Shown: positions 13,472 to 47,980, numbered from the stretch's first letter. The stretch is DNA of 64,000 nt from Candidatus Omnitrophota bacterium (GCA_028715785.1 JAQURC010000004.1:21885-85884); one strand, 5' to 3'. Notes: generated by a model not told the origin, from the letters alone. Made by a program: numbers and translations.

Positions 13472-13535
13472 GGGACGTCCTCAAAAGGGACACCCTGCTA
13501 TATGTTACAAGGGTGTCCCCGCGGAGGACGTCCCC
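13472..13535 (-). other. Large nested perfect hairpin. It spans the stop codon of the YkgJ-like gene and ends 12 nt before the DUF2156 start.
   Basis: The outer stem GGGACGTCCTC / GAGGACGTCCC is 11 bp. The inner stem GGGACACCC / GGGTGTCCC is 9 bp. The 15-nt loop contains the TAA stop at 13505-13507. Confidence 0.7.
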
Positions 13536-14032
13536 TTCTTCAGGTTCAACTCAGCGACCTCGCGTACCTCTTCATAGGCCTGGATGACCTGGGGGTTATC
13601 TTTGAGCATTTTTAGCACTTGCGGAGAATTAAGATAATTAGTCAGATAAATAATATAATCTTTGGCCTCCTGGCTGTTTATTTTTTCAGAGACGTAAGGG
13701 CAATTCAAATCAACGGTTAAGAGCACTTTTCCTTTGCGTAAATTAATCAAAAAGGGATAAAGCTGGCATTCAAACGGCCGGATATCGTAGATTTTGCATT
13801 TATTGTCTGTGCTGCCTAAAAACGGGCAGATAAAATCCGCGCCATCGGGATTAGGGATAAGGTGCAGGCGCCGGTTAATAGAAATAGAGGCGGCCGGGAT
13901 ACCTTTTTTATCCAATAACTCCTGGATCTCCTCGTCCAGAAGGCAGGGGCTCCATACGGAATCTGCTTCTTTAAACCTGCAGCAGCCGCGGCATTTGATG
14001 CAAAACTCCTGCGGGACGAATTGTTTGATCAT
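13505..14032 (-). CDS. YkgJ-family Cys-cluster protein (putative Fe-S or zinc-binding, CxxCxxCC).
   Basis: N-terminal CIKCRGCCRF with additional conserved Cys residues. 175 aa. Confidence 0.6.
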   Translation of the reverse strand: MIKQFVPQEFCIKCRGCCRFKEADSVWSPCLLDEEIQELLDKKGIPAASISINRRLHLIPNPDGADFICPFLGSTDNKCKIYDIRPFECQLYPFLINLRKGKVLLTVDLNCPYVSEKINSQEAKDYIIYLTNYLNSPQVLKMLKDNPQVIQAYEEVREVAELNLKKGTSSAGTPL

Positions 14033-14431: not shown

Positions 14432-14674
14432 TCAGGCGGTTGCCCGTACAAAAATACACCCCGCCAACTCCTTATCCGCCGCAAATTGCGATTGCCCGAT
14501 TTGAAAAACATAGGAAGGAAATTTCTGGATCAACACTATTGACATTCCGGCTAAAACCCCCATCGCCGCAAGTTTTTGGAGTTTCTTATGGTCCTTGGTA
14601 TGGATATAAGCAACTTTGGCTTTTTGGTTTACCTGCAAATTGACAAGAGAAGAAGTAACATCACTTATTTTCAT
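14432..14674 (-). CDS. feoA: Ferrous iron transport protein FeoA.
   Basis: Small SH3-like protein: LQVNQKAKVAYI...KLAAMGVLAGMSIVLIQK. The probable start is the Met at 14674. Confidence 0.7.
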   Translation of the reverse strand: MKISDVTSSLVNLQVNQKAKVAYIHTKDHKKLQKLAAMGVLAGMSIVLIQKFPSYVFQIGQSQFAADKELAGCIFVRATA

Positions 14675-14843
14675 CGGGTTTGCTTCCTTTCTTAAAATAC
14701 TCCGGCCATTTTGGCTTTGGCGGCGTCTCAAAACCGCAATTCGGGCATCTAATAAGCTTGCAACCTTTCATAACAGGGCAACTTTTGCAGGCTTCTTCTG
14801 CCTTTTTCTCGTTAAATTCATATCCGCATAAACTACATTTCAT
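14661..14843 (-). CDS. Small Cys-rich zinc-ribbon protein (60 aa) inside the feo operon. It may be FeoC-like or a FeoB-associated Cys-rich protein.
   Basis: MKCSLCGYEFNEKKAEEACKSCPVMKGCKLIRCPNCGF carries CxxC, CxxC and CxxC pairs. Its ATG overlaps the feoB stop in an ATGA arrangement. It falls below the ORF-track length cutoff as an independent start. Confidence 0.5.
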   Translation of the reverse strand: MKCSLCGYEFNEKKAEEACKSCPVMKGCKLIRCPNCGFETPPKPKWPEYFKKGSKPDENK

Positions 14844-16288
14844 AGGCTGATTCCCAAAATATTTAATATAAGATTCATTATAAATCCTGCGGTAAACGAG
14901 AAAAGCAGGATAAAGACTGAAATCCCCACACCGGTTTTCCAGCCCCTTTCTTTCACATTCATCAAAAATTGCGCGATACAAGGCAAAAACAATGTCAAAG
15001 TTACGCAGGCCACGACCAGCTGATTGCCGGTAAATAACCCCGCCTTTTTAATATCATACAGCCCGCCGGCGCCATAATCTCTCCTAAAGAATCCGAATAA
15101 GAAGGCAACCGCGGTTTTATCCGGCAAGCCAATCCAGCGGATAGGGTATTCTAAAATTTTGGTAAGCAAGCTAAACAGGCCCGTGATCTGGCCGATCCAG
15201 ATCATCATACTTGCCAATATAAACATGGGGAATATCTCCATAAAATACCATTTGACTCTCGTATAGGTTTTGATAAACACATTGGATAATTTAGGCAGCC
15301 GCAGAGGCGGGATTTCCATATAAAACGACGGCGAATCTCCCGGCAACACCTTGGAAGAAAGGAACCCTATTAAAACAAAAACCAATCCTACCACCCCTGC
15401 CCAGATCCACAATCCCTTGCTATTTCCTTCTAGCAAAGAAAGAATTACCCCCAACTGCGCTGCGCAAGGAATGGCTAAAGCGAGCAAAATAGTAGCAATA
15501 ATTCTTTCCCTTTTTGTAGGAAGTGTCCGGGTAACCATTGTCGCCATCGTATCGCACCCCAAGCCAAGGACCATGGGTATTACCGCCCTTCCGGTTAAGC
15601 CAATTTTTTTAAAAATCCTGTCTATCAATAAGGCCAGGCGCGGCAGATAACCCGTATCCTCGATAATTGCAAAGGCGATAAAGAACGTTGTGACGATAGG
15701 TAATATCAAAGCTACGGCATAACGCAGGCCTAAAGTGATCATCCCGTATTCACCCACAAATAATTCACGGAACAAATGCCGGGGGATAATTGAGCTGACT
15801 ACTTGCGTTATCCAGGGATTGATATGATTTTCAAAGATATCTGTCTCAATGAAATCAACCACTGTGCCTGCGCCAAATTCACCCACAAATTTATAGATAC
15901 CACAATAAAGTATTACCAGCAAAATAGGTATGCCCGTAACAGGATTTATCATTACCCTGCTAAGTTTTTCCTTAAACGGCAATCCGGGCTTCGGCAAGTG
16001 CTCTATGGCTCCACTTACAATACTACTTGCTTCCTCCTGCCTGCGTTGAGAAATTATATAAGAAAGCGGCTCCTGAAAATGCGTTTTGGCATGATTTACG
16101 ATTTCCATAATCTGGGCAAAGCTTTCCGCTTCGCTGGATTTCACCAGCGACATAATCTCCTCATCCTCCTGAAGCAACAATAGGCCGATAGAACGCTTAG
16201 AGATGCCGTGGTCCGCTCCTAGTAAATTTTCTATCTTCTCCAAAGAGTTTTCTAAGATATCGCCGGGGTATTTACATGTTTCTGACAT
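14840..16288 (-). CDS. feoB: FeoB C-terminal part (helical GDI-like domain plus polytopic membrane permease), encoded as a separate gene.
   Basis: Gate-motif membrane core with multiple TM segments. It has its own SD GGGAGG 8 nt upstream of the ATG at 16288, and it overlaps the end of the G-domain gene by 17 nt in a different frame. Confidence 0.8.
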   Translation of the reverse strand: MSETCKYPGDILENSLEKIENLLGADHGISKRSIGLLLLQEDEEIMSLVKSSEAESFAQIMEIVNHAKTHFQEPLSYIISQRRQEEASSIVSGAIEHLPKPGLPFKEKLSRVMINPVTGIPILLVILYCGIYKFVGEFGAGTVVDFIETDIFENHINPWITQVVSSIIPRHLFRELFVGEYGMITLGLRYAVALILPIVTTFFIAFAIIEDTGYLPRLALLIDRIFKKIGLTGRAVIPMVLGLGCDTMATMVTRTLPTKRERIIATILLALAIPCAAQLGVILSLLEGNSKGLWIWAGVVGLVFVLIGFLSSKVLPGDSPSFYMEIPPLRLPKLSNVFIKTYTRVKWYFMEIFPMFILASMMIWIGQITGLFSLLTKILEYPIRWIGLPDKTAVAFLFGFFRRDYGAGGLYDIKKAGLFTGNQLVVACVTLTLFLPCIAQFLMNVKERGWKTGVGISVFILLFSFTAGFIMNLILNILGISL

Positions 16289-16850
16289 ATTCTTCAATCC
16301 TCCCTTTCAAGATATCTATGCCTCTGCCTGTGGTCGAGACGGTGGAAACAACAGGAACTTTTAAATCTTTTTCTAAATGCTGCGAGTTTATTTTCATGCC
16401 GATTTTTTCCGCCTCATCGATAATATTCAAAACCAGCACGACCTTAAGTTTGGCCTCGATTAACTGTAATGTAAGGGGCAGCATTCTCTCTAAGTTTTTG
16501 GCATCAACGATATGGATGATGATATCGGGTTTTTCTTCAATCAATATATTCCTGGCCACCCGCTCCTCTTCGGTAATCGGCAGCAATGAATACATGCCCG
16601 GTGTATCGATAACCTCAAGTTCCCTGTCGCCTATTCTGGTTTTTCCTCTGGCTACTTCAACTGTAGTCCCCGGATAATTGGATACCGTAACATATGCCCC
16701 TGTCAGGCGGTTAAACATAACAGATTTACCGACGTTAGGGCTGCCCACAATCGCAATTTTACTCAAATTACCCCTAATCTCTCCCCCTTTCTTGCCGCAA
16801 CAAGAACCTGTTGGCTTAAATCCTTTAAATAATTTGTTAACAAAATCCAT
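16272..16850 (-). CDS. feoB: FeoB N-terminal GTPase (G) domain, encoded as a separate gene.
   Basis: G1 GSPNVGKS, G2 PGTT, G3 DTPG and G4 NIID. An SD GGAG precedes the Met at 16850. The ORF ends exactly at the G-domain / helical-domain boundary. Confidence 0.8.
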   Translation of the reverse strand: MDFVNKLFKGFKPTGSCCGKKGGEIRGNLSKIAIVGSPNVGKSVMFNRLTGAYVTVSNYPGTTVEVARGKTRIGDRELEVIDTPGMYSLLPITEEERVARNILIEEKPDIIIHIVDAKNLERMLPLTLQLIEAKLKVVLVLNIIDEAEKIGMKINSQHLEKDLKVPVVSTVSTTGRGIDILKGRIEEYVRNM

Positions 16851-16887
16851 TGGGGTCTCCTCTCTCTTTTTCGTTCTAAAATAAGCC

Positions 16888-17868
16888 CTAAAATGTATAA
16901 ACAAAAGTAAAAACTACTGAATCGTTTGCATCAGCGTTAGTCCCTGTCACCACACGCTGATACGCTATTAAGGTTTGAATCTTATCATTTGACCAACCAA
17001 ACCCCGGAGCAATGGTCAAATAATTTATATTTGAATCAAGAGTTCTTGCTCCATTTTGTCTTTTATCTCCCTGCAGAAACCCGTTTGCCTCAAACATAAG
17101 ATTGAACCCTTTTGACAGAAAATATTCTACTCCGAAATCATAATTAAGGTAGTTTGCATAACGGGTCTTGACACCGTCAACGTGCGCTTGCTGCGGGAAA
17201 TTGTAGACGGCATCAGCATGAAAAATAAACGGTTTTAATTTCTTGCTAAGATTTATCCCAAACCCCTGATCCCAGGAACCGCCTCCTGATCCGGCACCCA
17301 TCAAATCCGCCCCTAACTTATCAGGATCCGCATTCTCATATTTTCCTGTGGGCATTTTAAGCTGAAACAATCCTGTTATATGAGGCATCCAGCCCTTTTC
17401 TTCAAGGGCACAGTAACGCATAAAAAGATAACTATCGCCAAGGCCTTCTGAATGAGCGCTGGAACCATCCTGTTTGACATAATTTTGCTGATAAACCATC
17501 TGGGCATCAAGCTCAAGCCTATTCGTAAGGCCATATTGGGCAAAAAGCTGTTGCTGAAACTGGTACTTCTTATCACCACCGGGTAAAGAATCATAGTGGC
17601 CATCCGCGTTGAAGGTGCCTCTGGTGCGGTTATAAAAGAAAAATGGCTGGATCACAAACTTGCCTTTGCCGCAAAGCGGCGCTGTCCAAGTAGTAAGCGG
17701 GCCTGCGGAAACCGGCTCCCATTCATCATGCGCTTCGTGGCTTTGCTCAGAGGAAAGCAAACCACCGCCCTCCGGCTTGTGACTTTCACTGTGAGCGAAA
17801 CTATAATCCGCTTGATTCAACAATATAAAACTTACAATCGCCGGAATTAACAATACCCCCTTAAACAT
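16888..17868 (-). CDS. Outer-membrane beta-barrel protein (putative porin) with a His-rich N-terminal segment.
   Basis: Signal peptide MFKGVLLIPAIVSFILLNQADYSFA. A mature His/Glu-rich stretch HSESHKPEGG..HEAHDEW. Alternating amphipathic strands and a C-terminal Phe (TFVYTF). Confidence 0.6.
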   Translation of the reverse strand: MFKGVLLIPAIVSFILLNQADYSFAHSESHKPEGGGLLSSEQSHEAHDEWEPVSAGPLTTWTAPLCGKGKFVIQPFFFYNRTRGTFNADGHYDSLPGGDKKYQFQQQLFAQYGLTNRLELDAQMVYQQNYVKQDGSSAHSEGLGDSYLFMRYCALEEKGWMPHITGLFQLKMPTGKYENADPDKLGADLMGAGSGGGSWDQGFGINLSKKLKPFIFHADAVYNFPQQAHVDGVKTRYANYLNYDFGVEYFLSKGFNLMFEANGFLQGDKRQNGARTLDSNINYLTIAPGFGWSNDKIQTLIAYQRVVTGTNADANDSVVFTFVYTF

Positions 17869-17900
17869 AAATTTCTCTCCCTTATCCACAACCCTGTCCT

Positions 17901-18620
17901 TTAGAAAAGCACTCCTACAATCATCCTGGTCTGTAAATCATCCGCCCTTTCATTCAGCCCAAATACAGCCCCTGCCGCTATAAACGCTTTTTTAAAAGCA
18001 TATGAAACCGTCGGCCCAAGAGCATATTTCTCTTTCGGATAATTCCCTTTGGATTCGAAGCCGGCCTTAAACCGGGGCGTAAACGCGTAGTTAATACCCG
18101 CCGCATACTCATGGTCGGTTTTTCCTTCCCTTTCAAGGTTACGCTTAATAATCTGGTTATAGCTAAGGTTAAAACCGCCGATGTCTTTAGCCAATACGAG
18201 TTTTGCCTCTCCGACGTTGGGCTTAGAAAAATCATCATCACGAATGTATTCAAAATAAAGGAGCGGGTCAACAAAGAATTTACCCTTTTCTCCGATCCGA
18301 TAACGCGTCCTCAATTTAAACCCCTCGTATTCGCTGTCATTTTCGTATTTCTTATTTTTAAATTTCCACGCCTGGTACATTGCAACATCCCAGCGGCTGG
18401 TTATGCCGTACTCCAGTTCAACCTGCGGCTTGACAACATTAATGTTGGACTTATGCAAATTTGGCACTTCGCTTGTTACATATGTTTCAAGTTCCCACAT
18501 CCCTTTTGGCATAATCATATACTCATAGGTCCAGACATAACTTCTTCTATCCGCATAACTAGAGGAGGTAAATCCAAACAGTATCGCTAAACTAAATATC
18601 GCCAATAAACATTTTTTCAT
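17901..18620 (-). CDS. Outer-membrane beta-barrel protein (small OMP).
   Basis: Signal peptide MKKCLLAIFSLAILFGFTSSSYA. Aromatic-rich alternating strands and a C-terminal VLF. Confidence 0.55.
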   Translation of the reverse strand: MKKCLLAIFSLAILFGFTSSSYADRRSYVWTYEYMIMPKGMWELETYVTSEVPNLHKSNINVVKPQVELEYGITSRWDVAMYQAWKFKNKKYENDSEYEGFKLRTRYRIGEKGKFFVDPLLYFEYIRDDDFSKPNVGEAKLVLAKDIGGFNLSYNQIIKRNLEREGKTDHEYAAGINYAFTPRFKAGFESKGNYPKEKYALGPTVSYAFKKAFIAAGAVFGLNERADDLQTRMIVGVLF

Positions 18621-18640
18621 TTTATCTGCCTCCTTAACAT

Positions 18641-18669
18641 TGATTTTGAGTTTCATTATCATTACTATC
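18641..18669 (-). promoter_or_regulatory. Candidate Fur box upstream of the small OMP gene.
   Basis: The reverse complement GATAGTAATGATAATGAAACTCAAAATCA resembles the GATAATGATAATCATTATC consensus. It is near-identical to the motif at 19608-19632. Confidence 0.45.
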
Positions 18670-18691
18670 CCAAAAAAAAAGGCCCTCCTTT

Positions 18692-19591
18692 CTAAATAAA
18701 AGTAAATAGATATCCCAGCGCCAGGCCCATAACGGAGACCAGGCTTAAATATATTATCAACACCTTCGCCCCGAATTCTTTCCTGAGCACTAATATCGTC
18801 CCGTAACTTGTTATGGGGCCGACTGATAGAAGGACAAAACCCGCTCCTCTATCCAATCCCTGCTTGATAAGAGCATCAACCAAGGGCACGCCCATGGTTG
18901 CGCACATATAGGTAACCAAACCAAAAATTAAAGCAAACAAATAGCCTGTGCCTCCTTTTAAATAATGTTTCACCAGGTGGCCAACCGGCATTATTGAATC
19001 CACGGAAGCTGCCATGGCCAAGCCAAGAAGCGTTTCTTTGCCGATATCTTTGGGCATCTGAATATAGGCAAACCTAAAGACGGATACCAGCCGAGAACCA
19101 AAAGGCTTTTTTGTTGTTTTAGGTTCAAGGTGGCCAAGATTCGATTCGCCGCAATTACAACCATCGTTGCTCTTTAGGATCTTTTTTAACCTAATCCTGT
19201 TGCCAATCAAACCGGCAGTTATTCCCATCAGGATTACCGAAAAGAAAAGATAAACGGCAAATTTAAGCCCCAGTAATTTAGCTGTGACAATAAGGGCATT
19301 TATAGAGGTGGCAGGAGTGGCAACAAGCATTGCCAGTATAGGACCTAAAGAAGCGCCTTTCTTACGAAAACTAACGGCAATAGGTAAACACCCCCAGCAG
19401 CAGACGGGGATAAGCGTTCCAACCAGCGTGGACCATAAAACCCCTTTAAGGCCCTTGCCTCCCAAATGCTTGTTTATCCAGGCATCCGGGATGAACTCAT
19501 GAATGATCCCGCTTAGAAGAAAACCAATCGCCAAAGCAGGGGCCATTTCGATAAAATAATGCTTAAATGAATTAATAAAATTAACCGCCAT
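18692..19591 (-). CDS. DUF318-family permease (YraQ/ArsP-like) with a Cys-rich CCWGC motif.
   Basis: Eight or more TM helices in a two-repeat topology and a VCCWGCLP motif, positioned where the ArsP family has TPFCSCS. It is the first structural gene downstream of fur. Confidence 0.5.
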   Translation of the reverse strand: MAVNFINSFKHYFIEMAPALAIGFLLSGIIHEFIPDAWINKHLGGKGLKGVLWSTLVGTLIPVCCWGCLPIAVSFRKKGASLGPILAMLVATPATSINALIVTAKLLGLKFAVYLFFSVILMGITAGLIGNRIRLKKILKSNDGCNCGESNLGHLEPKTTKKPFGSRLVSVFRFAYIQMPKDIGKETLLGLAMAASVDSIMPVGHLVKHYLKGGTGYLFALIFGLVTYMCATMGVPLVDALIKQGLDRGAGFVLLSVGPITSYGTILVLRKEFGAKVLIIYLSLVSVMGLALGYLFTFI

Positions 19592-19607
19592 AGCAATCTG
19601 CCTTTGT

Positions 19608-19632
19608 GATTTTGAGTTTCATTCTCAATATA
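19608..19632 (-). promoter_or_regulatory. Candidate Fur box upstream of the permease gene.
   Basis: TGATTTTGAGTTTCATTCTCAATAT shares 20 nt with the motif at 18641-18660. It is made of hexamer repeats of the NATWAT type. Confidence 0.45.
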
Positions 19633-19648
19633 TTATTAAAAAATATAT

Positions 19649-20083
19649 TTACCTCTTACACCTCTTGCATACGCCGTAAAGTTCCATGCGGTGCCTTTGG
19701 GGATAAAACCCGTGCTGTTTAGCCAGCTTTTCCTGCAGACTTTCGATCTGGGGATCCACTACCTCCACGAACCTGCCGCACTTGGTACAGATAAGATGAT
19801 CGTGGTGCTGATGCCCATAGAGATGCTCGTATCTGGTTGTGCCGTCCTCAAAGCTCAGCTCGCGGCAAAGGCCGCATTCGCAAAGCAATTTAAGCGTCCG
19901 GTAGATCGTGGCATATCCTATCGCCGGATATTTCTTCTGGACGGACATATAGAGTTCGTTCGCGGTCAAGTGCTTATCAATGCCTAAAAAAATATGCAGT
20001 ATCTCTTTTCTTTGCTGGCTATGCTTGAGATCTTTAGTCGCAAGGTAATCTTCGAACATCTTTGTTTCTTTTTCCGAGACCAT
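19649..20083 (-). CDS. fur: Ferric uptake regulator family transcription factor.
   Basis: A winged-helix N-domain, HHDHLICTKCG and a C-terminal CKRCKR metal site. 144 aa. Confidence 0.85.
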   Translation of the reverse strand: MVSEKETKMFEDYLATKDLKHSQQRKEILHIFLGIDKHLTANELYMSVQKKYPAIGYATIYRTLKLLCECGLCRELSFEDGTTRYEHLYGHQHHDHLICTKCGRFVEVVDPQIESLQEKLAKQHGFYPQRHRMELYGVCKRCKR

Positions 20084-20104
20084 AATAAGCCGTCCTTAGG
20101 TTAT

Positions 20105-20130
20105 GATATTGAAAATCGATATCAATATTA
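20105..20130 (-). promoter_or_regulatory. Candidate Fur box (autoregulatory) upstream of fur.
   Basis: GATATTGAAAATCGATATCAATATTA contains four NATWAT hexamers with dyad symmetry. Confidence 0.4.
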
Positions 20131-20195
20131 ACACAAATAAAAATACCTGTCAAGAAAATAATTTATAGTTTTACATTGTTCAGGCATTGCAAGCT

Positions 20196-20427: not shown

Positions 20428-20880
20428 TTAGGCAACTATGCCCAAAAGCATCAAGGTAAACGCCATGACCAGCAAGGCCACGGTTTCAGTCATCCCCAGG
20501 ACAACCAGATAGTTGCCAAAACCTTTGTCGGTCTCGCCCATGGCATCGCAGGCGCAGGCCGCGCATTTACCCTGCCATAAAGCGGAAAGCCCGATGGCCA
20601 AACCGGCAAATGCTCCGATGCTCCAGAGATATTGCCCTTTGTTGGCAATTGCCATTAATTGGCGCATAACAATCATCCCGTAAACCGTCTGGGTAAGCGG
20701 AGCGGCCACAAAAACCACCAGCATAAACGAAGCGGCTTTATTCTGCGCGAAGTTCTTTTTCCAGGCGCCGATAGCCGCCATTCCGGCAATCCCTGCCCCA
20801 CATCCGGAACCTACCGCCGCAAGCGCAAGCACTAAAATCGCGCCTAGATCCTTGAACTGCATTAACATATTATTCTCCAT
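20428..20880 (-). CDS. atpK: V/A-type ATPase proteolipid subunit K (c).
   Basis: Four TM helices with GAGIAGMAAIG and GLAIGLSALWQG. The essential Glu context (ETVAL) is present. Confidence 0.8.
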   Translation of the reverse strand: MENNMLMQFKDLGAILVLALAAVGSGCGAGIAGMAAIGAWKKNFAQNKAASFMLVVFVAAPLTQTVYGMIVMRQLMAIANKGQYLWSIGAFAGLAIGLSALWQGKCAACACDAMGETDKGFGNYLVVLGMTETVALLVMAFTLMLLGIVA

Positions 20881-20894
20881 AAATACGCTCCCCT

Positions 20895-22661
20895 CTATTC
20901 TTTTAAAGGTTTATAATTTCGGCCGCTCCAGGAAACATTGGCATGCCCTGAGAACTCCAGCACATTCAACCTGACCCCGTGCACTAAAACTCCTACCGGG
21001 CCCAGTATAATACCAAGGCTATGGCCCACCAAAACAATAAAGGCCGCCAAAATTAAAGAAACCGCGCTTGCGTTTCCCACAGAAGAAGCCATGGCGTTAA
21101 AAGCATCGGCAATAGCTACCCCGGCCAAACCTACCGCAAAAAGACGGATATATGAAACCACGTCGGTAAAATTATTCATTAGGCTTAAAGCCAACGTGCC
21201 TAAGCCTGAGCCGATGCCTTTTAAAATATTTTTTTGCGGGTTGGTAAAAATTACAACCAGCGTAATCCCGGCGATCAGCAGCCAATTGCCAAAAAACGGA
21301 AAATTATCCCCCAGGATAAGCAGTTTGGCGATAAAAAAACAACTCCACAAAATACAGGCCCAGCCAAGATCCGCTATTAAGCTTAAAGCCGGGGCCTTCA
21401 GTATTGCCCGCCAGATGTGGGCAATGGACAGGTGCGTTGCCCCGAGAAAAAAACAGAACCTCTGCAGCGTCTTTTCATCGTTAAGCGAAGGGACCAAAGG
21501 TTTATACCCCGCTTTTAAAACCCACTCCTGGCCAAAGAAGGTGCCTGTGCAAGCCCCCCATATGATAGCGCAAAAACTTAAGATGTAAAATAGAAAAAAA
21601 CTGCCGGTATTTTTCTTATTTTTCCCGGCCTGCCGGTGCAAAAAAAAGGTAATCAGGAAATAGACCAGGCCATATCCGGCATCGCCAATTAACATGCCAA
21701 AGAAAATACTGAAAAAAATGAGGAAGCACAAACTGATATCCAGCTCGCGATAACCGGGCAATATTTCAAGGAACTTAAATACCGGGCTGATTATGGCAAT
21801 CCAAGCCGGATTACGCAGCAGAACAGGGACATTATCTTGCTCTGCCGGCGCCTCAACAAGCAAAGCCCATTGCTCTTGTTTTGCCTGGTAAGTTATTCTT
21901 TCCAGGCTGTCAAAAGGAATATAACCGCTGACATAAGTCAACTCCTCCGCCTGGCCCATCCCGGCAAGGGCCTCCTGAAACTCTAATTTTTTCTGCAAGC
22001 TGCTGCGGATTTTATTTAAACTCACCCGGCAGCCAAGCTGTTGAACCAGTTGCTCTTCAATATGCTGGATTGCCTGAAGATCGTGCGCCCTGCGCGCATA
22101 CATCTGCGATAAGCTGGACGCCGGCAGGGGAATTTCTTTAAAGCCGATATCTATTTTTTTGTCCGCAATAATCAGGCAATTGGCGATTTGGCCTTTAACC
22201 GATACCTTATTGACAACAACATCTTTTGGTATCTGCCTTAACTGCTTAGTTGGTATCTGATAAATACCGGCGAAGATATTATTTTTGGCTAAATCCGCAA
22301 AATCCCGCGGGTCAAAATCACCCCATTCTTCATACTGTTTTATGTGTATGGAAAGAGACCTTAAATATTCGGTTAACTGGTCTTTGCGTTTATACAAATC
22401 GATGATGTGCCGGACGGTAAACTGCGCGTCGGCTACCTCTTGATCCTTGGGAGCATCTTGCGGCTGGATTTTTACTCCGGACAAGATGCTCAAGGCCTGA
22501 TCAATTAAGGAGATCTCCTCGATCAAAACAAGAATGTCCTTGCCCTTAGGAACTTGCGCATGTTCAACATGCAAAACTCCCAAAGAACGTAATTTGTTTA
22601 AGGCGCTCAAGCCGTCTTTAGCCTGGGTGACCACGGTTACTTTTTTCATCGGGACAATCAT
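20895..22661 (-). CDS. atpI: V/A-type ATPase subunit I (a).
   Basis: 588 aa with a hydrophilic N-terminal half and a C-terminal polytopic membrane half. The conserved Arg-containing helix is in VSYIRLFAVGLA. Confidence 0.8.
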   Translation of the reverse strand: MIVPMKKVTVVTQAKDGLSALNKLRSLGVLHVEHAQVPKGKDILVLIEEISLIDQALSILSGVKIQPQDAPKDQEVADAQFTVRHIIDLYKRKDQLTEYLRSLSIHIKQYEEWGDFDPRDFADLAKNNIFAGIYQIPTKQLRQIPKDVVVNKVSVKGQIANCLIIADKKIDIGFKEIPLPASSLSQMYARRAHDLQAIQHIEEQLVQQLGCRVSLNKIRSSLQKKLEFQEALAGMGQAEELTYVSGYIPFDSLERITYQAKQEQWALLVEAPAEQDNVPVLLRNPAWIAIISPVFKFLEILPGYRELDISLCFLIFFSIFFGMLIGDAGYGLVYFLITFFLHRQAGKNKKNTGSFFLFYILSFCAIIWGACTGTFFGQEWVLKAGYKPLVPSLNDEKTLQRFCFFLGATHLSIAHIWRAILKAPALSLIADLGWACILWSCFFIAKLLILGDNFPFFGNWLLIAGITLVVIFTNPQKNILKGIGSGLGTLALSLMNNFTDVVSYIRLFAVGLAGVAIADAFNAMASSVGNASAVSLILAAFIVLVGHSLGIILGPVGVLVHGVRLNVLEFSGHANVSWSGRNYKPLKE

Positions 22662-23275
22662 ACCGCTCCTCCCGCAAAAACAGCCTCTTCGATCTTTCGC
22701 TTGGCGATTTTACTGCGGCCTACGGCGTTAGCCATCTGGTCACCGATATAGATCTTAATCAGACGGATATTTTCTTCGGCAAGCGGGATCTTGACTTTCT
22801 CAAAAAGGTTGACTCTTTGCGTAGTGATACGCAGCTCATGCCTTAAGATAGCAATGCCTTCTTCGGCCAGCGCTACCTCTTTATTCAAAATAAAAATTTC
22901 CCTGAAGGCCTCAACCGCAAAATCAAGCCACAGGGGCATAAGGAATAAATCGTAATCCGGCGCGGCAAACTCTACCTTGTCCAATACCGGAATATCCACT
23001 CCGGCAATATTTTTAGGGTGGGTAATAATTTTTACCGGCTTTAAATATGTTTTCAAATCCACCAACGGGTCCGCAAGCAAGCCGGCCCAAAAAATAACTG
23101 CCTGCTTTTTTTTGGCTTGTGCCTGTTTTTTTATTTCAAGGAGGGAGTTCTGCTGCAGGATCTCCAGCTGTAACTGCTGTTTCTTTAGCTGCAAAGTAGG
23201 CAGATAGCGTTGAAATTGTTTTAAGGCATCGCGCTGCCTTTTTAATTCGCCTTTGGTAAATTTTATTTTTGCCAT
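22658..23275 (-). CDS. atpD: V/A-type ATPase subunit D.
   Basis: [36 protein letters not shown] matches subunit D. The start is chosen at 23275, and the ATG overlaps the atpB stop by 1 nt. Confidence 0.8.
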   Translation of the reverse strand: MAKIKFTKGELKRQRDALKQFQRYLPTLQLKKQQLQLEILQQNSLLEIKKQAQAKKKQAVIFWAGLLADPLVDLKTYLKPVKIITHPKNIAGVDIPVLDKVEFAAPDYDLFLMPLWLDFAVEAFREIFILNKEVALAEEGIAILRHELRITTQRVNLFEKVKIPLAEENIRLIKIYIGDQMANAVGRSKIAKRKIEEAVFAGGAV

Positions 23276-24570
23276 TAGTCTCTCGGCCAGAACTGCTCGA
23301 TAATCGAAAGTTTTATCCCGGTTTCTTCGGGAGAAAAACAATCCGCCAAGATTTGCCAGCCCAAATCCAGGGCTTTTTCCAGGGGGATATTTACCTTAAG
23401 CGACATCATCTTCTCTTCAAAAAACAAGCCGTATTTAAGCAATTTCTTGTCCCAGGCGCTCATCTGAAACCCCATTGACTGCTTCTCCAGGGTTTGGCGG
23501 TAATCGGCAAAAAGCTGGATCATGGTATCCATAATTGTGCGGTGGTCAGGGCGGGTTTTGCCATTTACCTGCTGTTTTAAGCGGCTCAATGACCCAAACG
23601 GCTCGATAACCGCGGATTTCAAGTAAAATTGGCCTTCGGTGATATAACCCGTATTATCCGGGACCGGATGGGTAACATCGTCTCCGGGCATGGTCGTAGC
23701 CGCAAGAATGGTAATTGAGCCTGCCCCTTCAAAATCAACCGCTTTTTCATACCGTGCAGCCAGTTGGCTGTAAAGATCCCCGGGGTAGCCGCGGTTAGAA
23801 GGGACCTGCTCCATGGTAATCGAAATTTCTTTCAAGGAATCGGCAAAATTAGTCATATCGGTTAACAAAACCAACACCCTTTTGCCTTTTAAAGCGAAAT
23901 CCTCGGCCACGGCTAAGCTAATATCCGGCACAAGTAAACACTCAACGGTGGGGTCAGACGCAGTGTGGATAAAAAATACGCAGCGGGAAAGGGCTCCGTG
24001 GGCGTTTAATGTTTCCCGAAAGAAAAGAAAGTCGTCGTATTTTAAGCCCATGCCGCCTAAAATAATAATATCCACCTCCGCCTGGATGGCAATGCGCGCC
24101 AAAAGTTCATTATAGGGCTCTCCGGCGATTGAAAAAACAGGGAGTTTTTGCGATTCTACCAGCGAATTAAAAACATCAATCATCGGAATACCGGTGCGGA
24201 TAATTTTATTGGGAATAATCCTCTTGACCGGATTTACGGAAGGAGCGCCGATAGCCGTTAGGTTCTCAGAAAGTATTGGCCCGCGGTCCAGGGGCAGGCC
24301 GCTGCCGTTAAATATGCGGCCCAATAGATTTTCTCCGGTTGCCACGCGCATCGGATGGCCCAAGAACCTTACCTTGTCTTGCGTTGATATCCCGCGGCTG
24401 CCGGCAAAAACCTGTAAAGATACTTTTGTCGAATCGATGCGGATAACCTGGGCTAAAGAAACGCTCCGGCCGCAGGTAATCTGGGCGATATCCAGGTACC
24501 CCACCCCCTGGGCCTCCACGGTAATCACATCCCCGGCGATTTGAATAATATTAGTGTAGGCTTTTTGCAT
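23275..24570 (-). CDS. atpB: V/A-type ATPase subunit B (non-catalytic).
   Basis: A/B-family alpha-beta fold without an intact P-loop: [18 protein letters not shown]. 431 aa. Confidence 0.85.
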
Positions 24571-28133: not shown

Positions 28134-29056
28134 GCTCTTAATTTTCCCGTAAGCTGGCTTAAATCCGGAATATTATTGCCCGCCATATATTTCTCTAATC
28201 CGGAGATAATTTCCAGGCTTACTCCGGGATTAATAAAGTTTGCCGTCCCGATACTGATCGCGCTGGCGCCGGCAAGCAAAAACTCCAAAGCGCTTTCCGT
28301 GTCTATTATACCACCCATGCCGATAATGGGAATCTTAATCTTATTATAAGCCTCCCAGACCATCTTAACGGCTACGGGCCGGATTGCCGGCCCGCTTAAA
28401 CCGCCCACCCAAGAACCTAGTTTAGGAATACGTTTATTTACATCTATACTCATACCGCCAAGGGTGTTGATTAAGGCCAGCGCATCGCTGCCGGCATCCT
28501 GGGCCGCCTGGGCAATTTCACTGATTGAAGTTACATTGGGAGAAAGTTTGGTGATTAAGCATTTTTGTGTGAATTTACGTACCGAGCCGATCACTTCAAA
28601 GGTATCTTTGGTATCCTGAGAGATAAGTTTATTTTTCTGCAGATTGGGGCAGGATATATTTAATTCGATTGCGGACACTTCATTTATTTTATCCAGCTGC
28701 TCAATCAGAACAAGAAATTCATCCGGGCTTTCTTCGGCGGCAATACTTACAATAAGCGGAACAGCCAGTTTCTTCAGGAAAGGAAGTTTCTCTCTGATAA
28801 ATTTATCGATGCCGGGATTTTCCAGGCCGATAGAATTAAGCATGCCGGCAGGGGTTTCACATGTCCGGGGAGGAAGATTCCCGTAGCGGGGCTTGACAGT
28901 AATGGTCTTGGTAACAATGGCTCCCAATTTTTTCAGGTCGATAAAATCCTTGAACTCTTCGGCATAACCGAATGTGCCGCTGGCCGCCATTACGGGATTC
29001 TTCAGCTTAAGCTTGCCTATGCTCAAGCTTAAATCGGGCTTGATCCGTTTTACCAT
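28121..29056 (-). CDS. pyrD: Dihydroorotate dehydrogenase (class 1B catalytic subunit).
   Basis: NPVMAASGTFGY, GAIVTKTIT, NISCPN and GGI..GMGGI motifs. Confidence 0.85.
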   Translation of the reverse strand: MVKRIKPDLSLSIGKLKLKNPVMAASGTFGYAEEFKDFIDLKKLGAIVTKTITVKPRYGNLPPRTCETPAGMLNSIGLENPGIDKFIREKLPFLKKLAVPLIVSIAAEESPDEFLVLIEQLDKINEVSAIELNISCPNLQKNKLISQDTKDTFEVIGSVRKFTQKCLITKLSPNVTSISEIAQAAQDAGSDALALINTLGGMSIDVNKRIPKLGSWVGGLSGPAIRPVAVKMVWEAYNKIKIPIIGMGGIIDTESALEFLLAGASAISIGTANFINPGVSLEIISGLEKYMAGNNIPDLSQLTGKLRACQD

Positions 29057-42230: not shown

Positions 42231-44672
<2,442 letters not shown>

Positions 44673-44957
44673 TTAAATTTCTCCGATACGGAAAATTATA
44701 TTTTTTAATCCCGGGTTTTCTTTTTTTAACTTACCCAGCAGCTCTTCTTTCTTTAAACTTAAAATATACAGCCAAGAGGAAGAATCCACGCTTAAACCCA
44801 AAACACCCTTGCTGAAATATTTAACTTTTATATGCCCCAACTCTTTCTTTGTCAAGGCTTTTTTTAACCACTGCTGCGGCTGGGCATCCGCCAAAACACC
44901 TTTTTTGGCGCTTAAGCCCCGCATAAGTTCATCCAGCGTATTTTTTAAAAGTTCCAT
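44673..44957 (-). CDS. DUF721 (DciA-like) protein.
   Basis: 94 aa. SSSWLYILSLKKEELLGKL matches the DUF721 C-terminal pattern. It sits between dnaN and gyrB, in the usual recF position. Confidence 0.55.
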   Translation of the reverse strand: MELLKNTLDELMRGLSAKKGVLADAQPQQWLKKALTKKELGHIKVKYFSKGVLGLSVDSSSWLYILSLKKEELLGKLKKENPGLKNIIFRIGEI

Positions 44958-44961
44958 ATTA

Positions 44962-46056
44962 CTAGTTAAGGCGCATGGGTAAAACTATGTAAACATAACC
45001 GCTGATCCGGATAACCCCGGGTTTTTCTGTATCCGTTAACTCTAAACCAATTACTTCTTCGTTCAAATTCTTCAAAACATCCATTAAATATACCGGGTTA
45101 AAACCAATCACCAGCTCCCTGCCCTGATATTCTACCGCCAATTCTTCATGAAACTCGCCGACATCGGGAGTAGACTTGGAAATTACCAGTTTATTCTTAA
45201 AAACCTCGAATTTTACCGCCTGATAATCCGGCGTTGCCAAAAGCGCGGCTCTTTTTATCGCCAATAAAAACTGGTTACGCTGCACCTTCATTTTATTTTC
45301 AGATACCGCGGGAACAACTTGTTTGTAATCGGGAAATTCCCCTTCGATTAAACGAGATACAACCGCCACGCCGCCTAAATCGAACAAGGCCTGATTACTG
45401 CTAATCACCAAAGATAATTCTCCCTCATCTTTCAGGTTACGGTTTAATTCCTGTATTGTTTTAATCGGGACAACCATGCTTACTTCAGCTTCGGGCTCGG
45501 CTGTGGTTAGTTTTCTCTCCGCAACCGCCAATCTCTTGCCATCGGTAGCCACCAAGGTTAACACCCCTTTACTAATCTTAAAAAGAATACCGTTTAAAAC
45601 ATAGCGGGTTTCATCAAAAGACACCGCAAATGCGGTTAACGATAATATTTCTTTTAAAACCCCTTGATTAATTTTAATAGCTTTCTTGTCTTTGAACTCA
45701 GGTAGTTTTGGAAACTCTTCTTTGGCCAATCCCATAATCTTAAATTGGCACATATCCGAATCAACGAGAACCTGATTGTTTTTTTTGGTGCCAACATTAA
45801 TAATATCCGAAGGGAACTCTTTAATTATATCGCTAAACCTCTTAGCCGGAATCGTGATTGCTCCCGGTTCCTGCATATCCACAGGGATTACACAGGTTAT
45901 CCCGATATCTAAATCCGTTGCTGTTAATTTTACCATCCCTAACTGGACATCAATTAAGATATTAGAAAGGATGGGTAATGCGGATTTGGTGGTAATTATG
46001 TTTTGTACGGCTTGAATTGCGTTAACCAGGTTTGTTTTTTCGACTTTAAATTTCAT
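44962..46056 (-). CDS. dnaN: DNA polymerase III beta sliding clamp.
   Basis: MKFKVEKTNLVNAIQAVQNIITTKSALPILSNILI, three-domain beta clamp. 364 aa. Confidence 0.9.
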   Translation of the reverse strand: MKFKVEKTNLVNAIQAVQNIITTKSALPILSNILIDVQLGMVKLTATDLDIGITCVIPVDMQEPGAITIPAKRFSDIIKEFPSDIINVGTKKNNQVLVDSDMCQFKIMGLAKEEFPKLPEFKDKKAIKINQGVLKEILSLTAFAVSFDETRYVLNGILFKISKGVLTLVATDGKRLAVAERKLTTAEPEAEVSMVVPIKTIQELNRNLKDEGELSLVISSNQALFDLGGVAVVSRLIEGEFPDYKQVVPAVSENKMKVQRNQFLLAIKRAALLATPDYQAVKFEVFKNKLVISKSTPDVGEFHEELAVEYQGRELVIGFNPVYLMDVLKNLNEEVIGLELTDTEKPGVIRISGYVYIVLPMRLN

Positions 46057-46197
46057 TTTAGGCTCCCCTTTTATTTATATATATTTAAAAACTTAAAATA
46101 ACAGTAGTCATAAAGGGCCCGCATGTTTGTTTACAAAGACTTAACTTGTTGCAATATGTCTAATTATAACAAATATTGTAATCTAATAACCTGGGGA

Positions 46198-47535
46198 TCA
46201 CTGTTTAATAACTTGAATAATTTTTTCCACCCGGGTCTTTAATTCCGGGTTACGGTGTATGTCTTCCTTGAGTTTATTATAAGAATGTAAAACTGTTGTG
46301 TGGTCCTTGCCGCCAAAAAGCTCTCCAATCTCCGGCAGAGACAGATCAGTCAACTCCCTGCTTAGATACATCGCGATTTGTCTTGGGAACACGACTTGTT
46401 TATTGCGCCGCTTGGTTTTAAGGTCTTGCAGGGAAATCCCGAATTCTTCAACCACGCAGCGCTGGATAAAATCCACCGTGATTAATTTTGTCGGCTCCTT
46501 GAGCAGGTCTTTTAAAACATCTTTAGTTAATTGCAGGGTAATCGGGGCCTCCTCCAGTAAAGAATAAGCAATGGTCCTGACCAAAGCCCCTTCTAGTTCG
46601 CGGATGTTAGTCTTGATTAATTGGGCGATAAAAAAAATTACTTCATCGGGGACATTAACCGGTTCGCGCTCAATTTTTTTCTTAAGGATGGCCACGCGGG
46701 TTTCTAAATCCGGAGGCTGGATATCGGTGGCCAGCCCCCAGCCGAACCGTGAAACCAGCCTTTCCTGTAAATTGGTAATTTCTTTGGGGGGCCGGTCCGA
46801 AGAAAACACGATCTGTTTGTGCGCATCATATAAAGTATTAAAAGTGTGAAAAAATTCTTCCTGGGTCGATTCCTTTCCGGCGATAAAGTGGATATCGTCG
46901 ATAACCAAAACATCGAGATTGCGGTATTTTTGGCGGAAGGCCGCGGTGGAACGGTGGACGATAGCGTCGATCAGTTCGTTGGTAAATTTTTCACTTGAGA
47001 CATAGCATATTTTTACGCCCGCTGGATTACTGTTTTTTATTTGATGGCAGATCGCCTGGATCAGGTGGGTTTTGCCCAGCCCCACCCCGCCGTAAATAAA
47101 TAGCGGGTTATATGTTTTGGCCGGTGAATTGGCCACTGCCAGCGAATAAGCGTGCGCATGCCGGTTGGACGGACCCACCACAAAATTTTCAAATGTATAA
47201 CGCGAATTAAGATTGATAAATCCGGCAGCCGGAGCGGTTTTAATATTTGCTTCGGGATAAGAATGAACAGCGCTTAAATCTTCCTGCACACTGCTAACAA
47301 CCAGCCTTACTAACAGATTATCCAGTCCTTTATGTTTTAAGGTTTCCAGAATAAGGTTGAGATAATGTTTTTCTACCCAATCTTTGAAAAACTGATCCGG
47401 CGCCTCCAGGTTGATACTTTGGTTATCCTGGATAGAAAGCCTCAATGGCGCTATCCAGGTAGCGTAGATAGTTTCTCCTAAGCTGGCCTTTAAATCTCTT
47501 TGCGTTTCTTCCCAATTTTTAGTAAGCTCGAACAT
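46198..47535 (-). CDS. dnaA: Chromosomal replication initiator DnaA.
   Basis: AAA+ Walker A GGVGLGKTHL, sensor motifs and the C-terminal DnaA-box-binding domain with RDHTTV. Confidence 0.9.
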   Translation of the reverse strand: MFELTKNWEETQRDLKASLGETIYATWIAPLRLSIQDNQSINLEAPDQFFKDWVEKHYLNLILETLKHKGLDNLLVRLVVSSVQEDLSAVHSYPEANIKTAPAAGFINLNSRYTFENFVVGPSNRHAHAYSLAVANSPAKTYNPLFIYGGVGLGKTHLIQAICHQIKNSNPAGVKICYVSSEKFTNELIDAIVHRSTAAFRQKYRNLDVLVIDDIHFIAGKESTQEEFFHTFNTLYDAHKQIVFSSDRPPKEITNLQERLVSRFGWGLATDIQPPDLETRVAILKKKIEREPVNVPDEVIFFIAQLIKTNIRELEGALVRTIAYSLLEEAPITLQLTKDVLKDLLKEPTKLITVDFIQRCVVEEFGISLQDLKTKRRNKQVVFPRQIAMYLSRELTDLSLPEIGELFGGKDHTTVLHSYNKLKEDIHRNPELKTRVEKIIQVIKQ

Positions 47536-47842: not shown

Positions 47843-47980
47843 ATGAAAAAAAATTTAAAGACACCCACAAATATTGTCGGTAAAAAACGCCACGGGTTCC
47901 GCAGTAAAATGGCTTCTAAATCCGGACGTAAACTTTTGGCCCGTCGACGGAGCAAGGGCAGAAAACGACTTTGCATTTAA
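47843..47980 (+). CDS. rpmH: 50S ribosomal protein L34.
   Basis: [45 protein letters not shown], with SD AGGAG 7 nt upstream. 45 aa, below the ORF-track cutoff. Confidence 0.9.

Follow-up and report, generated by a model that had tools for sequence, protein, structure and literature searches.

A putative Fur-controlled iron-acquisition island with a split feoB and an ArsP-like permease in a Candidatus Omnitrophota bacterium

What does an ArsP-like permease do among iron uptake genes? Operons in which Fur represses a porin together with the Feo system are already known, and the new element of the locus described here, and its only puzzling part, is a cysteine-motif permease of the DUF318/ArsP_1 family (PF03773). 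The locus lies at positions 14432 to 20130 of a 64-kb stretch of Candidatus Omnitrophota DNA (64,000 nucleotides; hereafter, the window) and is known from MAG sequences only. The initial annotation had called such a permease in an iron setting unusual, and rightly so: we found no paper linking the DUF318/ArsP_1 family to Fur or iron. We propose that the locus is probably a Fur-autoregulated iron-acquisition island of three Fur-box-controlled units.

All genes of the island, from fur to feoA, are on the minus strand. The first, fur (19649..20083), encodes a 144-aa Fur-family regulator (PF01475, E = 1e-36) and is followed by the permease gene (18692..19591; 299 aa; PF03773 ArsP_1, E = 1.7e-36), ompS (17901..18620; 239 aa, with a signal peptide and a C-terminal F, weakly PF13557-like), and ompL (16888..17868; a 326-aa outer-membrane barrel; PF13557, 30.6 bits versus a cut-off of 22). 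Then come feoB-N (16272..16850), which encodes the FeoB G domain as a separate protein of 192 aa (PF02421, E = 2e-59), feoB-C (14840..16288; 482 aa), which supplies the helical and membrane domain (FeoB_Cyto, two Gate domains, and FeoB_C), a Cys-rich ribbon gene (14661..14843; 60 aa and 7 Cys, in the pattern CxxC..CxxC..C..CxxC), and feoA (14432..14674; 80 aa with an SH3-like FeoA domain; PF04023, E = 2.5e-11). These coordinates and Pfam matches bear out the gene content and the one-strand order that had been read from the sequence, including the two signal-peptide outer-membrane protein (OMP) genes, feoB, the Cys ribbon ORF, and feoA after the permease gene. The ribbon ORF exists as described, and its extent has been corrected to 60 aa from a start at 14843. 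A gap of 71 nt separates the permease gene from ompS, and the third unit is tightly packed, with gaps of 32 and 37 nt (ompS/ompL/feoB-N) and then gene overlaps. The most likely start of ompS is at 18620, after AAGGAGG, the first ATG of the ORF being a less likely start. No terminator was found at the downstream end of the island.

As Fur boxes, we considered 19-bp inverted repeats that are close to GATAATGATAATCATTATC and overlap a promoter. The fur promoter (20125..20153, minus strand) consists of TTGACA, a 17-nt spacer, and TAATAT with a TG extension (10/12 matches), and it is the only promoter assigned; none was defined for the permease unit or the ompS-feoA unit. Three candidate boxes are 19-bp operators of this kind, with promoter contact seen for box F, which abuts the -10. 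More specifically, box F (GATATTGAAAATCGATATC; 20105..20123; 15/19 matches) is a palindrome directly downstream of the fur promoter -10, box P (GAGAATGAAACTCAAAATC; 19608..19626, minus strand; 14/19) ends 16 nt before the permease ATG, and box O (GATAATGAAACTCAAAATC; 18642..18660, minus strand; 15/19) occupies the permease-ompS gap. A scan of the whole 64-kb window with the E. coli 19-mer yielded 8 sites with at least 14/19 matches, versus 2.5 expected from the Markov simulations that served as the null. In addition, a Fur matrix scan, which the initial annotation had called for, was run with a matrix derived from 17 sites of relatives, the closest relative being left out. Boxes O, F, and P ranked first, second, and third among all window positions (26.7, 22.0, and 21.1 bits), whereas the null maximum had a mean of 12.3 bits and a 95th percentile of 17.3 bits. 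The sites that had been noticed upstream of fur, the permease gene, and the small OMP gene are far beyond chance. Two other high-scoring places that were checked (28322-28340 and 60554-60581) are inside ORFs.

Two of the boxes had been described as identical over 20 nt. Since the 17-mer AATGAAACTCAAAATCA, which occurs exactly twice in the window (19607-19623 and 18641-18657), is the exact repeat at both sites, the exact identity is 17 nt, or 20/21 if extended. A recent duplication was rejected as its source, because relatives also carry identical or nearly identical boxes within one genome; the near-identity instead reflects a strong clade consensus.

The arrangement of the boxes is also conserved. 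At the equivalent site upstream of fur, a box is present in relatives L001, L002, L003, L004, L009, L087, and L088, and, in all of these except L004, box P has a counterpart at the equivalent site and a third box precedes variable iron-uptake genes. This three-box layout (fur, then the permease gene, then a variable cargo) recurs in six other genomes, in which the cargo of the third box comprises an OMP and split Feo (L002), ompS (L003), Porin_O_P, FMN_bind, a His-rich Alginate_exp OMP, and split Feo (L001), FeoA-FeoB and a His-rich OMP (L009), Cupredoxin-FTR1 (L087), or two OMPs and a fused FeoB (L088). Each box of the window and its relatives shares 14 to 19 of its 19 positions with the classical iron Fur box. 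Given the high box scores, the box placement at or just after the -10, and the conserved layout, the proposed Fur control has the strongest support that sequence analysis can give.

The split of feoB, noticed at the outset, is real. In the window, feoB is not a single polypeptide: the two ORFs are in different frames with an overlap of 17 nt, and feoB-C has its own GGGAGG Shine-Dalgarno sequence. The FeoB domains are complete over the two ORFs (PF02421, PF17910, PF07670 twice, and PF07664), and each half alone misses the TIGR00437 cut-off of 315.65 (206 and 225 bits). feoB-N also carries an N-terminal GSCCG tail. A matching junction occurs at six other loci (L001, L002, L007, L026, L081, and L083), with overlaps of 17 to 35 nt, a shared relative frame, and ATG or TTG starts; these loci include an archaeal MAG, and protein identity is 61-89%. 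In a fused homologue, the junction corresponds to the linker that follows the G domain, and there are stand-alone G-domain representatives of about 200 aa whose C-termini are complete. Frameshifts can occur in MAG assemblies and the intergenic DNA is AT-rich, and one might read the split as a frameshift, a misassembly, or a pseudogene in decay, and the boxes as AT-rich chance matches. We give this almost no credence, as the conserved junction and the matrix scan contradict it: the split recurs with its start codon, Shine-Dalgarno sequence, and overlap in independent assemblies, both halves keep all their domains, and the three boxes top the 64-kb ranking at positions conserved in relatives. 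G-domain-only FeoA-FeoB fusion ORFs without a membrane region have been treated as possible sequencing errors (PMC8980893), whereas the split seen here is conserved. The FeoA-FeoB fusions of Bacteroides (PMC8980893) represent the opposite trend to the separate G-domain polypeptide of the window. With canonical FeoABC (E. coli and other Gammaproteobacteria), the window shares the FeoA SH3 domain, the G domain, the helical domain, and the two Gate motifs, but its order, feoB(N)-feoB(C)-ribbon-feoA, differs.

The start codon of the ribbon gene and the stop codon of feoB-C overlap (ATGA). The ribbon gene has 25 homologue clusters, and at 6/6 places read it follows feoB-C or, in L085 at a contig end, a 5'-cut ORF, with feoB-N also in view at four of them. 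At the six other loci with the split junction, the ribbon gene always comes next. The gene appears to be always translationally coupled to feoB-C. Its 60-aa product gave no FeoC match, only sub-threshold rubredoxin-like and UPF0547 matches, and a FeoC-like role would be an analogy only.

The feoA product is a FeoA protein encoded with feoB (PF04023, 43.9 bits versus a cut-off of 23). DNA comparison with L002 revealed that feoA arose by in-frame deletion from a gene for a 213-aa protein in which Pfam detects a DtxR-type metal-binding domain (Fe_dep_repr_C) and a FeoA domain. Unlike in canonical Feo, the FeoA domain of the window's relatives is fused to a DtxR-type metal-binding domain. The fusion, encoded beside feoB, resembles the DtxR-family protein MntR of P. 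gingivalis, which has FeoA domains (PMC4805248); however, the 213-aa relatives have no detectable Fe_dep_repress HTH, and in the window protein the metal-binding domain is deleted. A DtxR family repressor was rejected as an identity for this product, of which the FeoA domain alone is left.

Which metal does the island serve? The fur product contains an HQHHDH cluster and two CxxC pairs (CTKC and CKRC), which fits a structural zinc site of the Cys4 type and a regulatory site rich in His. Its best NCBIfam matches are Fur equivalogs, all below cut-off (top, 109 bits versus 220), and among PDB structures it matches Fur proteins best (4ets, E = 1.9e-27), with PerR and Zur behind them. Since no equivalog cut-off was reached, we infer the iron-Fur subtype from context and box type, and predict an iron-sensing Fur. 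The regulator could instead be a Mur, Zur, or PerR-type paralogue and the island an importer of manganese or zinc. This would agree with the missed Fur cut-offs, with a PerR score of 87 bits (109 for the best Fur model), and with the presence among the top PDB matches of 5fd5, a chain labelled Fur that we take to be the Rhizobium manganese regulator Mur. Moreover, the metal could be other than iron because Mn2+ can be a substrate of FeoB homologues and Mn a signal for DtxR proteins with FeoA domains; P. gingivalis has a manganese transporter, FeoB2, under the control of the FeoA-domain MntR (PMC4805248). We nevertheless consider a manganese or zinc island quite improbable, as the top-matching models and structures are Fur, the boxes agree with the classical iron type, and the cargo of relatives includes iron-specific companions (HemP, FTR1 with cupredoxin, and ferritin nearby).

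A His/Glu-rich mature N-terminus had been pointed out in one OMP, and we found it in ompL (HSESHKPEGGG..SHEAHDEW), where it is variable in the alignment. The AF2 model of ompL has a pLDDT of 69 (about 80 in the barrel), and its top Foldseek matches are FapF (5o67) and a COG4313 channel (4rl8), with E about 1e-12 and TM about 0.6 to 0.75. The Pfam match and barrel fold place ompL with the COG4313/Phenol_MetA_deg channels and, at moderate model confidence, it models as a 12-stranded channel of the COG4313/FapF type. It superposes on the barrels of the COG4313 channel Pput2725 (4rl8) and the amyloid secretion channel FapF (5o65), both of which we take to be 12-stranded. Those proteins handle hydrophobic molecules or amyloid subunits, whereas ompL is a Fur-box-preceded feo-operon gene with a His/Glu-rich tail. 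ompS scores 20.6 to 21 bits against PF13557, just under the cut-off; it is absent from the closest relative, L002, and present in L003, L004, and L088.

An experimentally verified Fur-repressed operon of porin and Feo genes is feoPABC of Acidithiobacillus ferrooxidans, for which co-transcription and a box over the promoter have been described (PMC1874648). The window resembles it in having an outer-membrane channel gene together with feo genes behind a Fur box. The feoPABC porin, however, is of the OprB family, a gene for which lies near feoB in relative L089, whereas the window encodes two small COG4313/FapF-like barrels. It also differs in its split feoB, in having feoA last and a Cys-rich ribbon in place of FeoC, and in including fur and a DUF318 permease gene in the island.

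Under our proposal, when iron is sufficient, metal-loaded Fur would bind the 19-bp boxes, which, judging from their positions, would overlap or directly follow the -10, and would block three units, i.e., fur, the permease gene, and a putative ompS-ompL-feoB(N)-feoB(C)-ribbon-feoA operon. When iron is scarce, the island would be derepressed and, as family membership suggests, the two small barrels would pass Fe2+ over the outer membrane, where the ompL tail could capture cations. The two-polypeptide FeoB (a G protein translationally coupled to a membrane permease) would then carry iron over the inner membrane, assisted by the ribbon as a FeoC-like accessory and by the stand-alone FeoA. These components would make up the complete outer-to-inner-membrane uptake route that the initial annotation had envisaged. 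Within the clade, the permease is a constant companion of fur, and the cargo of the third unit is exchangeable (Feo, FTR1, or different porins).

The permease itself is a Cys-motif DUF318 protein, as had been supposed: it matches PF03773 over its full length (126 bits; residues 6-297 of 299) and carries PVCCWGC at residues 62-68. Its invariant features in the alignment are PVCCWG, a CxC in a Lys/Arg-rich central loop, and C230 in MCATMGVP. In the structural model, which is of moderate confidence (pLDDT 72), the short helix pairs 48-60/65-77 and 214-226/231-243 bracket C64/C65 and C230, and the fold matches are elevator-type carriers. We predict a secondary carrier whose invariant cysteines lie at the tips of two re-entrant helical hairpins, and this position suggests a thiophilic metal substrate. 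An identity as an ArsP organoarsenical efflux permease was rejected, there being no ars genes around the permease in the window region or at any of 80 permease loci. SO_0444/Shew_3410, ArsP, and SaoE share PF03773 with the window permease and all have Cys motifs in a membrane segment, but they reside in ZntR, ars, and SAO loci, in contrast to the fur, DtxR, Feo, FTR1, or Cys/Fe-S operon settings found here.

An importer role would go against family precedent, since the characterised relatives are all tied to metal or metalloid resistance, or classed as exporters, and not linked to uptake. The permease may be an SO_0444-type exporter of Cu(I), Zn, or Cd, a safety valve induced alongside iron uptake that would leave the rest of the island unchanged. 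It would guard against thiophilic metals entering the derepressed, non-selective Fe2+ route, or against their poisoning of Fe-S assembly at low iron. The best NCBIfam match of the permease is indeed the SO_0444 Cu/Zn efflux family (197 bits), the Shewanella homologue is important for zinc resistance, TCDB assigns an organoarsenical exporter role to the ArsP family, and export is also predicted for SaoE. The Lys/Arg-rich loop with its CxC also fits. Furthermore, CusCBA-type RND efflux genes adjoin permease homologues at 8/80 loci (L016, L063, L023, L043, and L075 among them), without Fur boxes, and genes for periplasmic YHS-domain proteins do so at 4. On the other hand, the SO_0444 score is far under the cut-off of 300, and the permease has a membrane CC-W-G, apparently in place of the CSC (or USC) motif described for that family. 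In the closest clade, the permease gene always follows an iron regulator gene, is tied to iron importer genes as well, and is never tied to efflux genes; in L089, for example, a 64%-identical permease comes after a DtxR-type repressor gene and before feoA-feoA-feoB and the OprB porin gene. Fur boxes over the transcription start also imply expression under iron starvation, a pattern typical of uptake genes in known cases. We regard export as a serious but unlikely alternative.

Most likely, the permease is a second inner-membrane metal transporter that serves iron homeostasis, with Fe2+ import as our leading guess. A bolder and decidedly doubtful extension is that the PVCCWG subfamily constitutes an unrecognised inner-membrane importer of ferrous or thiol-/sulfide-bound iron (e.g., dissolved FeS) in anaerobes of sulfidic habitats, and that split FeoB with its ribbon is a second, distinct Feo architecture common to bacteria and archaea. 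Such an importer, if real, would explain both the partnership with fur or DtxR in one clade and the presence of the permease in Cys/homocysteine/Fe-S operons elsewhere.

Those operons, of the Rrf2-CysK-HcyBio-NifS/IscU type and without Fur boxes, host permease homologues of 47-58% identity at 40/80 loci, as counted from sulfur/Fe-S genes (CysK, HcyBio [COG1900], NIL-ferredoxin, ThiF, Rrf2, NifS, IscU, NifU, NadA, and ThiI-like) on the permease strand within four genes. The genes are often only -2 to 30 nt from their neighbours, mixed operons of the type Rrf2-CysK-FeoB-DtxR/FeoA-HcyBio-permease occur in L030, L063, and L079, and genes for CcdA and TlpA-type periplasmic reductants follow the permease gene at 12 of the 80 loci. 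The route by which anaerobes obtain iron and sulfur in sulfidic media has been stated as an open question (PMC8351635). The permease could move sulfur or iron-sulfur species (sulfide, thiols, or dissolved FeS clusters) that feed cysteine, homocysteine, and Fe-S synthesis; the clade would then have brought it under Fur control because most iron is consumed in supplying Fe-S clusters. We judge this improbable. H2S crosses membranes unaided, no family member is known as a carrier of sulfur compounds, and the YHS, CusCBA, Fur, and DtxR neighbours suggest a metal cation. The association could just as well mean that Fe-S assembly is being supplied with iron or protected from metals.

The eight-gene island lies entirely on the minus strand and, promoter included, spans window positions 20153-14432. 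A strong, sigma-70-type promoter (TTGACA-17-TAATAT) precedes fur, the first gene, which is followed by the permease gene (DUF318/ArsP_1, 299 aa), two outer-membrane barrel genes (ompS and ompL, both encoding signal-peptide proteins with a C-terminal F), feoB-N (the FeoB G domain, 192 aa), feoB-C (the FeoB helical and membrane domains, 482 aa), a gene for a small ribbon protein (60 aa, seven cysteines), and feoA (14432-14674, 80 aa). From ompS to feoA, the first two gaps measure 32 and 37 nt and the remaining three junctions are overlaps of 17, 4, and 14 nt, and from this close spacing we infer a single operon from ompS onward. We found no convincing terminator candidate 3' of feoA. The flanking genes are unrelated, with a tRNA-Asp gene, a tRNA-Val gene, and a V/A-type ATPase operon on the 5' side and a tRNA-binding-domain gene on the 3' side. 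The ATPase genes (proteolipid, I-like, and D subunits; 20428-23341) lie directly upstream of the tRNA-Val/tRNA-Asp genes that precede fur.

Three candidate Fur boxes were located in the island, upstream of fur (box F, 20105-20123, GATATTGAAAATCGATATC), the permease gene (box P, 19608-19626, GAGAATGAAACTCAAAATC), and ompS (box O, 18642-18660, GATAATGAAACTCAAAATC). Compared with the 19-position Fur box of E. coli, they agree at 15, 14, and 15 positions, respectively. At a threshold of at least 14/19, the window holds eight sites, while 2.5 are expected from simulated sequence. The initial annotation had named a Fur matrix scan as the check on Fur control, against which poorly scoring boxes would speak. 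We scanned the window with a clade matrix made from 17 boxes of relatives, excluding the closest relative. The boxes do not score poorly: box O ranks first (26.7 bits), box F second (22.0 bits), and box P third (21.1 bits). In 200 simulated windows, the maximum had a mean of 12.3 bits and a 95th percentile of 17.3. Both scans (consensus and matrix) and their simulations, together with conservation of the boxes in relatives, led us to reject an origin by chance or AT-richness. The 20-nt identity claimed for two of the boxes shrinks to an exact shared repeat of 17 nt, which reflects the tight clade consensus, GATAATGAAAATCAATATC. Recent duplication could also produce such a repeat, and we reject it because identical or near-identical boxes occur within single genomes of relatives as well. 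Two other high-scoring places were checked as possible signs of further Fur-regulated genes, one at 28322-28340 (15/19, 17 bits with the clade matrix) inside a pyrD-like (dihydroorotate-dehydrogenase-like) ORF and the other at 60554-60581 inside a TrkH-like ORF; given these intra-ORF positions, both are probably chance matches. As for the regulator itself, the nearest solved structures are Fur proteins, with PerR and Zur behind, and the protein scores below every NCBIfam equivalog cut-off.

With the permease as anchor, we retrieved 80 genome loci and later added further contigs. Six other genomes (L001, L002, L003, L009, L087, and L088, where L002 is the closest relative) share the arrangement of box and fur, box and permease gene, and box and cargo, the last being the genes behind the third box. 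The cargo itself differs: an outer-membrane protein (OMP) and split Feo in L002; ompS alone in L003; a Porin_O_P porin, an FMN-binding protein, a His-rich Alginate_exp barrel, and split Feo in L001; FeoA-FeoB plus a His-rich OMP in L009; Cupredoxin and FTR1 in L087; and two OMPs with a fused FeoB in L088. Since fur and the permease gene recur while the cargo varies, the fur-permease pair is the fixed core, to which exchangeable iron-uptake cargo is joined. In L004, fur adjoins the permease gene, a box was found upstream of fur only, and HemP lies 3' of the permease gene. In L089, a permease 64% identical to that of the window is encoded 3' of a DtxR-type repressor gene and is followed by feoA-feoA-feoB, an OprB porin gene, a second fur, and a ferritin gene. 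Relatives' other genes preceded by Fur boxes (L001 8984-12223, L009 11168-12508, and L087 9028-10936) are a Porin_O_P porin bearing an N-terminal coiled coil, a periplasmic FMN-binding protein, a Cupredoxin-FTR1 pair, and Alginate_exp-family barrels with His-rich N-termini.

Fur boxes and adjacency to fur were seen only at permeases at least 65% identical to that of the window, and more distant homologues (47-58% identical) occupy other gene contexts. Within four genes of the permease, 40 of the 80 loci carry Rrf2, CysK, HcyBio, NIL-ferredoxin, ThiF, NifS, IscU, NifU, NadA, or ThiI-like genes. In these cysteine and Fe-S operons, the gaps often amount to only a few nucleotides, with FeoB co-operonic in some cases. 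Other neighbors are CcdA or TlpA (12/80 loci), CusCBA (8/80), and periplasmic YHS proteins (4/80). Across L001-L080, where the permease lies at ~8001 in most loci, half of the loci place the PVCCWG subfamily inside Rrf2-CysK-HcyBio(COG1900)-NifS/IscU operons, and the permease gene is often followed by genes for a small signal-peptide protein, CcdA, and a TlpA-like redoxin.

The permease alignment is invariant at PVCCWG, at a CxC in the Lys/Arg-rich central loop, and at C230 in MCATMGVP. Membership in SaoE or ArsP was rejected on score and context. No solved structure with a sequence relationship to the permease was found, nor did we find a link of DUF318 to Fur or iron in the searchable literature, which misses many subscription-journal papers. 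Because the characterized relatives of the family are all linked to metal or metalloid resistance, we commit to a metal substrate and a role in iron homeostasis. Fold matches cover exporters (ArsB) as well as importers (the DASS family) and so do not separate the two directions; import is somewhat favored, since the boxes imply that the gene is expressed, alongside importers, when iron is scarce. If the permease is instead a Cu/Zn exporter, the finding becomes a modest regulatory curiosity.

The end of feoB-N lies 17 nt past the feoB-C ATG, in a different frame, with GGGAGG upstream of that ATG. A frameshift, whether a sequencing error or programmed, would give the same appearance, and a paper on FeoA-FeoB fusions raises sequencing error as a possible cause of fusion sequences without the membrane region (PMC8980893). 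We reject both forms of frameshift because the same split occurs in six other loci (L001, L002, L007, L026, L081, and the Euryarchaeota MAG locus L083), each having a separate feoB-C start codon preceded by a purine-rich stretch, and because no slippery sequence is common to the overlaps of the split loci. Across these loci the overlap is 17-35 nt, the relative frame is constant, and the start is ATG or TTG. In a fused homologue of 659 aa, the junction corresponds to the short linker that follows the G domain, and other Omnitrophota have fused FeoB (L030, L035, L063, L064, and L088). A length survey of FeoB G-domain homologues across a 50%-identity library, which contains fragments, is only suggestive of stand-alone forms, with about nine G-domain proteins of ~200 aa having complete-looking C-termini. 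Just ahead of the G1 motif, the window's FeoB-N carries a GSCCG tail (16760-16850, residues 1-30), and short N-terminal tails with Cys or His motifs (GSCCG, ASCH, GSCH, and CHQC..CH) are present in many FeoB G proteins of the group (P0247, P0252, P0256, P0261, P0282, and L083); they could be metal-sensing.

Homologues of the ribbon gene form 25 clusters, and no Pfam family was found for its product. Six places were examined, and at each of them the gene overlaps the stop codon of the ORF before it. That ORF is feoB-C except at the contig-end locus L085, where it is cut short and unannotated. A separate feoB-N is visible at four of the six, and at the five where the contig continues, a 213-216-aa Fe_dep_repr_C + FeoA protein or a short FeoA is encoded 3' of the ribbon. 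The conserved order and coupling argue for a distinct Feo architecture, predicted to comprise FeoB-N, FeoB-C, the ribbon, and an optionally metal-sensing FeoA. We found nothing on split FeoB or a FeoB-associated zinc ribbon in the searchable literature, with the same shortfall in subscription journals. The four-gene cassette (FeoB G protein, FeoB membrane protein, 60-64-aa Cys-rich ribbon, and FeoA or Fe_dep_repr_C+FeoA) recurs at L081 3024-5465, L083 2982-5829, L085, and L086, in other bacteria and an archaeal MAG (Euryarchaeota GCA_024860865.1); at L081 it is surrounded by cysteine, methionine, and ThiS/ThiF genes.

Compared at the DNA level with L002 (FeoB-C 89% identical), the window lacks ~426 nt at feoA (14432-14674 vs 4956-5597 in L002). 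The missing stretch encodes the metal-binding domain, of DtxR type, of a 213-aa Fe_dep_repr_C+FeoA protein. Since the MKISD start is kept in both genes and the deletion is in-frame, the window's FeoA is a deletion derivative. The 93-aa short FeoA of L081 is separate and independent.

Searching with ompL returned 631 homologues at E ≤1e-5, and all source-named ones come from Omnitrophota. Its model (pLDDT ~80 in the barrel) matches FapF and a COG4313 channel, and ompS is a distant paralogue. L002 has no ompS, and its third box lies directly 5' of ompL. The His/Glu-rich tail of ompL varies among homologues from absent to three HKPEGDG-type repeats, and His-rich N-terminal tails are also found on unrelated Fur-box OMPs of L001 and L009, which supports a putative role of such tails in capturing cations. 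In the ompL alignment (A2, columns 30-75; homologues P0219 and P0224), this length-variable, low-complexity region contains zero to three tandem HKPEGDGAASDNRS-like units.

A Fur-repressed Feo operon with its own porin is already established in feoPABC (PMC1874648), and the overall logic of the island is thus known. The island differs from feoPABC in its split FeoB with a ribbon partner, a FeoA stemming from a metal-sensor fusion, COG4313-type barrels, and, chiefly, a DUF318 permease as constant partner of fur. For the uncultured Omnitrophota, gene context is the only source from which physiology can be read, and our interpretation draws solely on MAG sequence and on two moderate-confidence models. 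The island offers the phylum a clear, testable Fur regulon core made up of the consensus box, the fixed pair, and the exchangeable cargo. It also shows that FeoB occurs naturally in two-polypeptide form, with a Cys-rich partner of its own, in bacteria and archaea alike, and this provides a ready-made system for studying communication between G domain and pore, an unresolved point in the Feo mechanism. In addition, a permease family otherwise associated only with metal and metalloid resistance is now tied to iron regulators and Fe-S/cysteine synthesis, which bears on how anaerobes obtain iron and sulfur in sulfidic water.

Two further observations concern the surrounding sequence. Two genes 3' of feoA, on the same strand and separated from it by the tRNA-binding-domain gene, lies a gene (13505-14032) for a 175-aa protein with a CxxCxxCC domain (PF03692, putatively zinc- or iron-chelating), and its surroundings yielded no Fur box. 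At ~44000-48000, the GC skew changes sign, with a cumulative minimum near 46 kb, and the predominant tRNA strand also switches, which could mark a replication origin or terminus.
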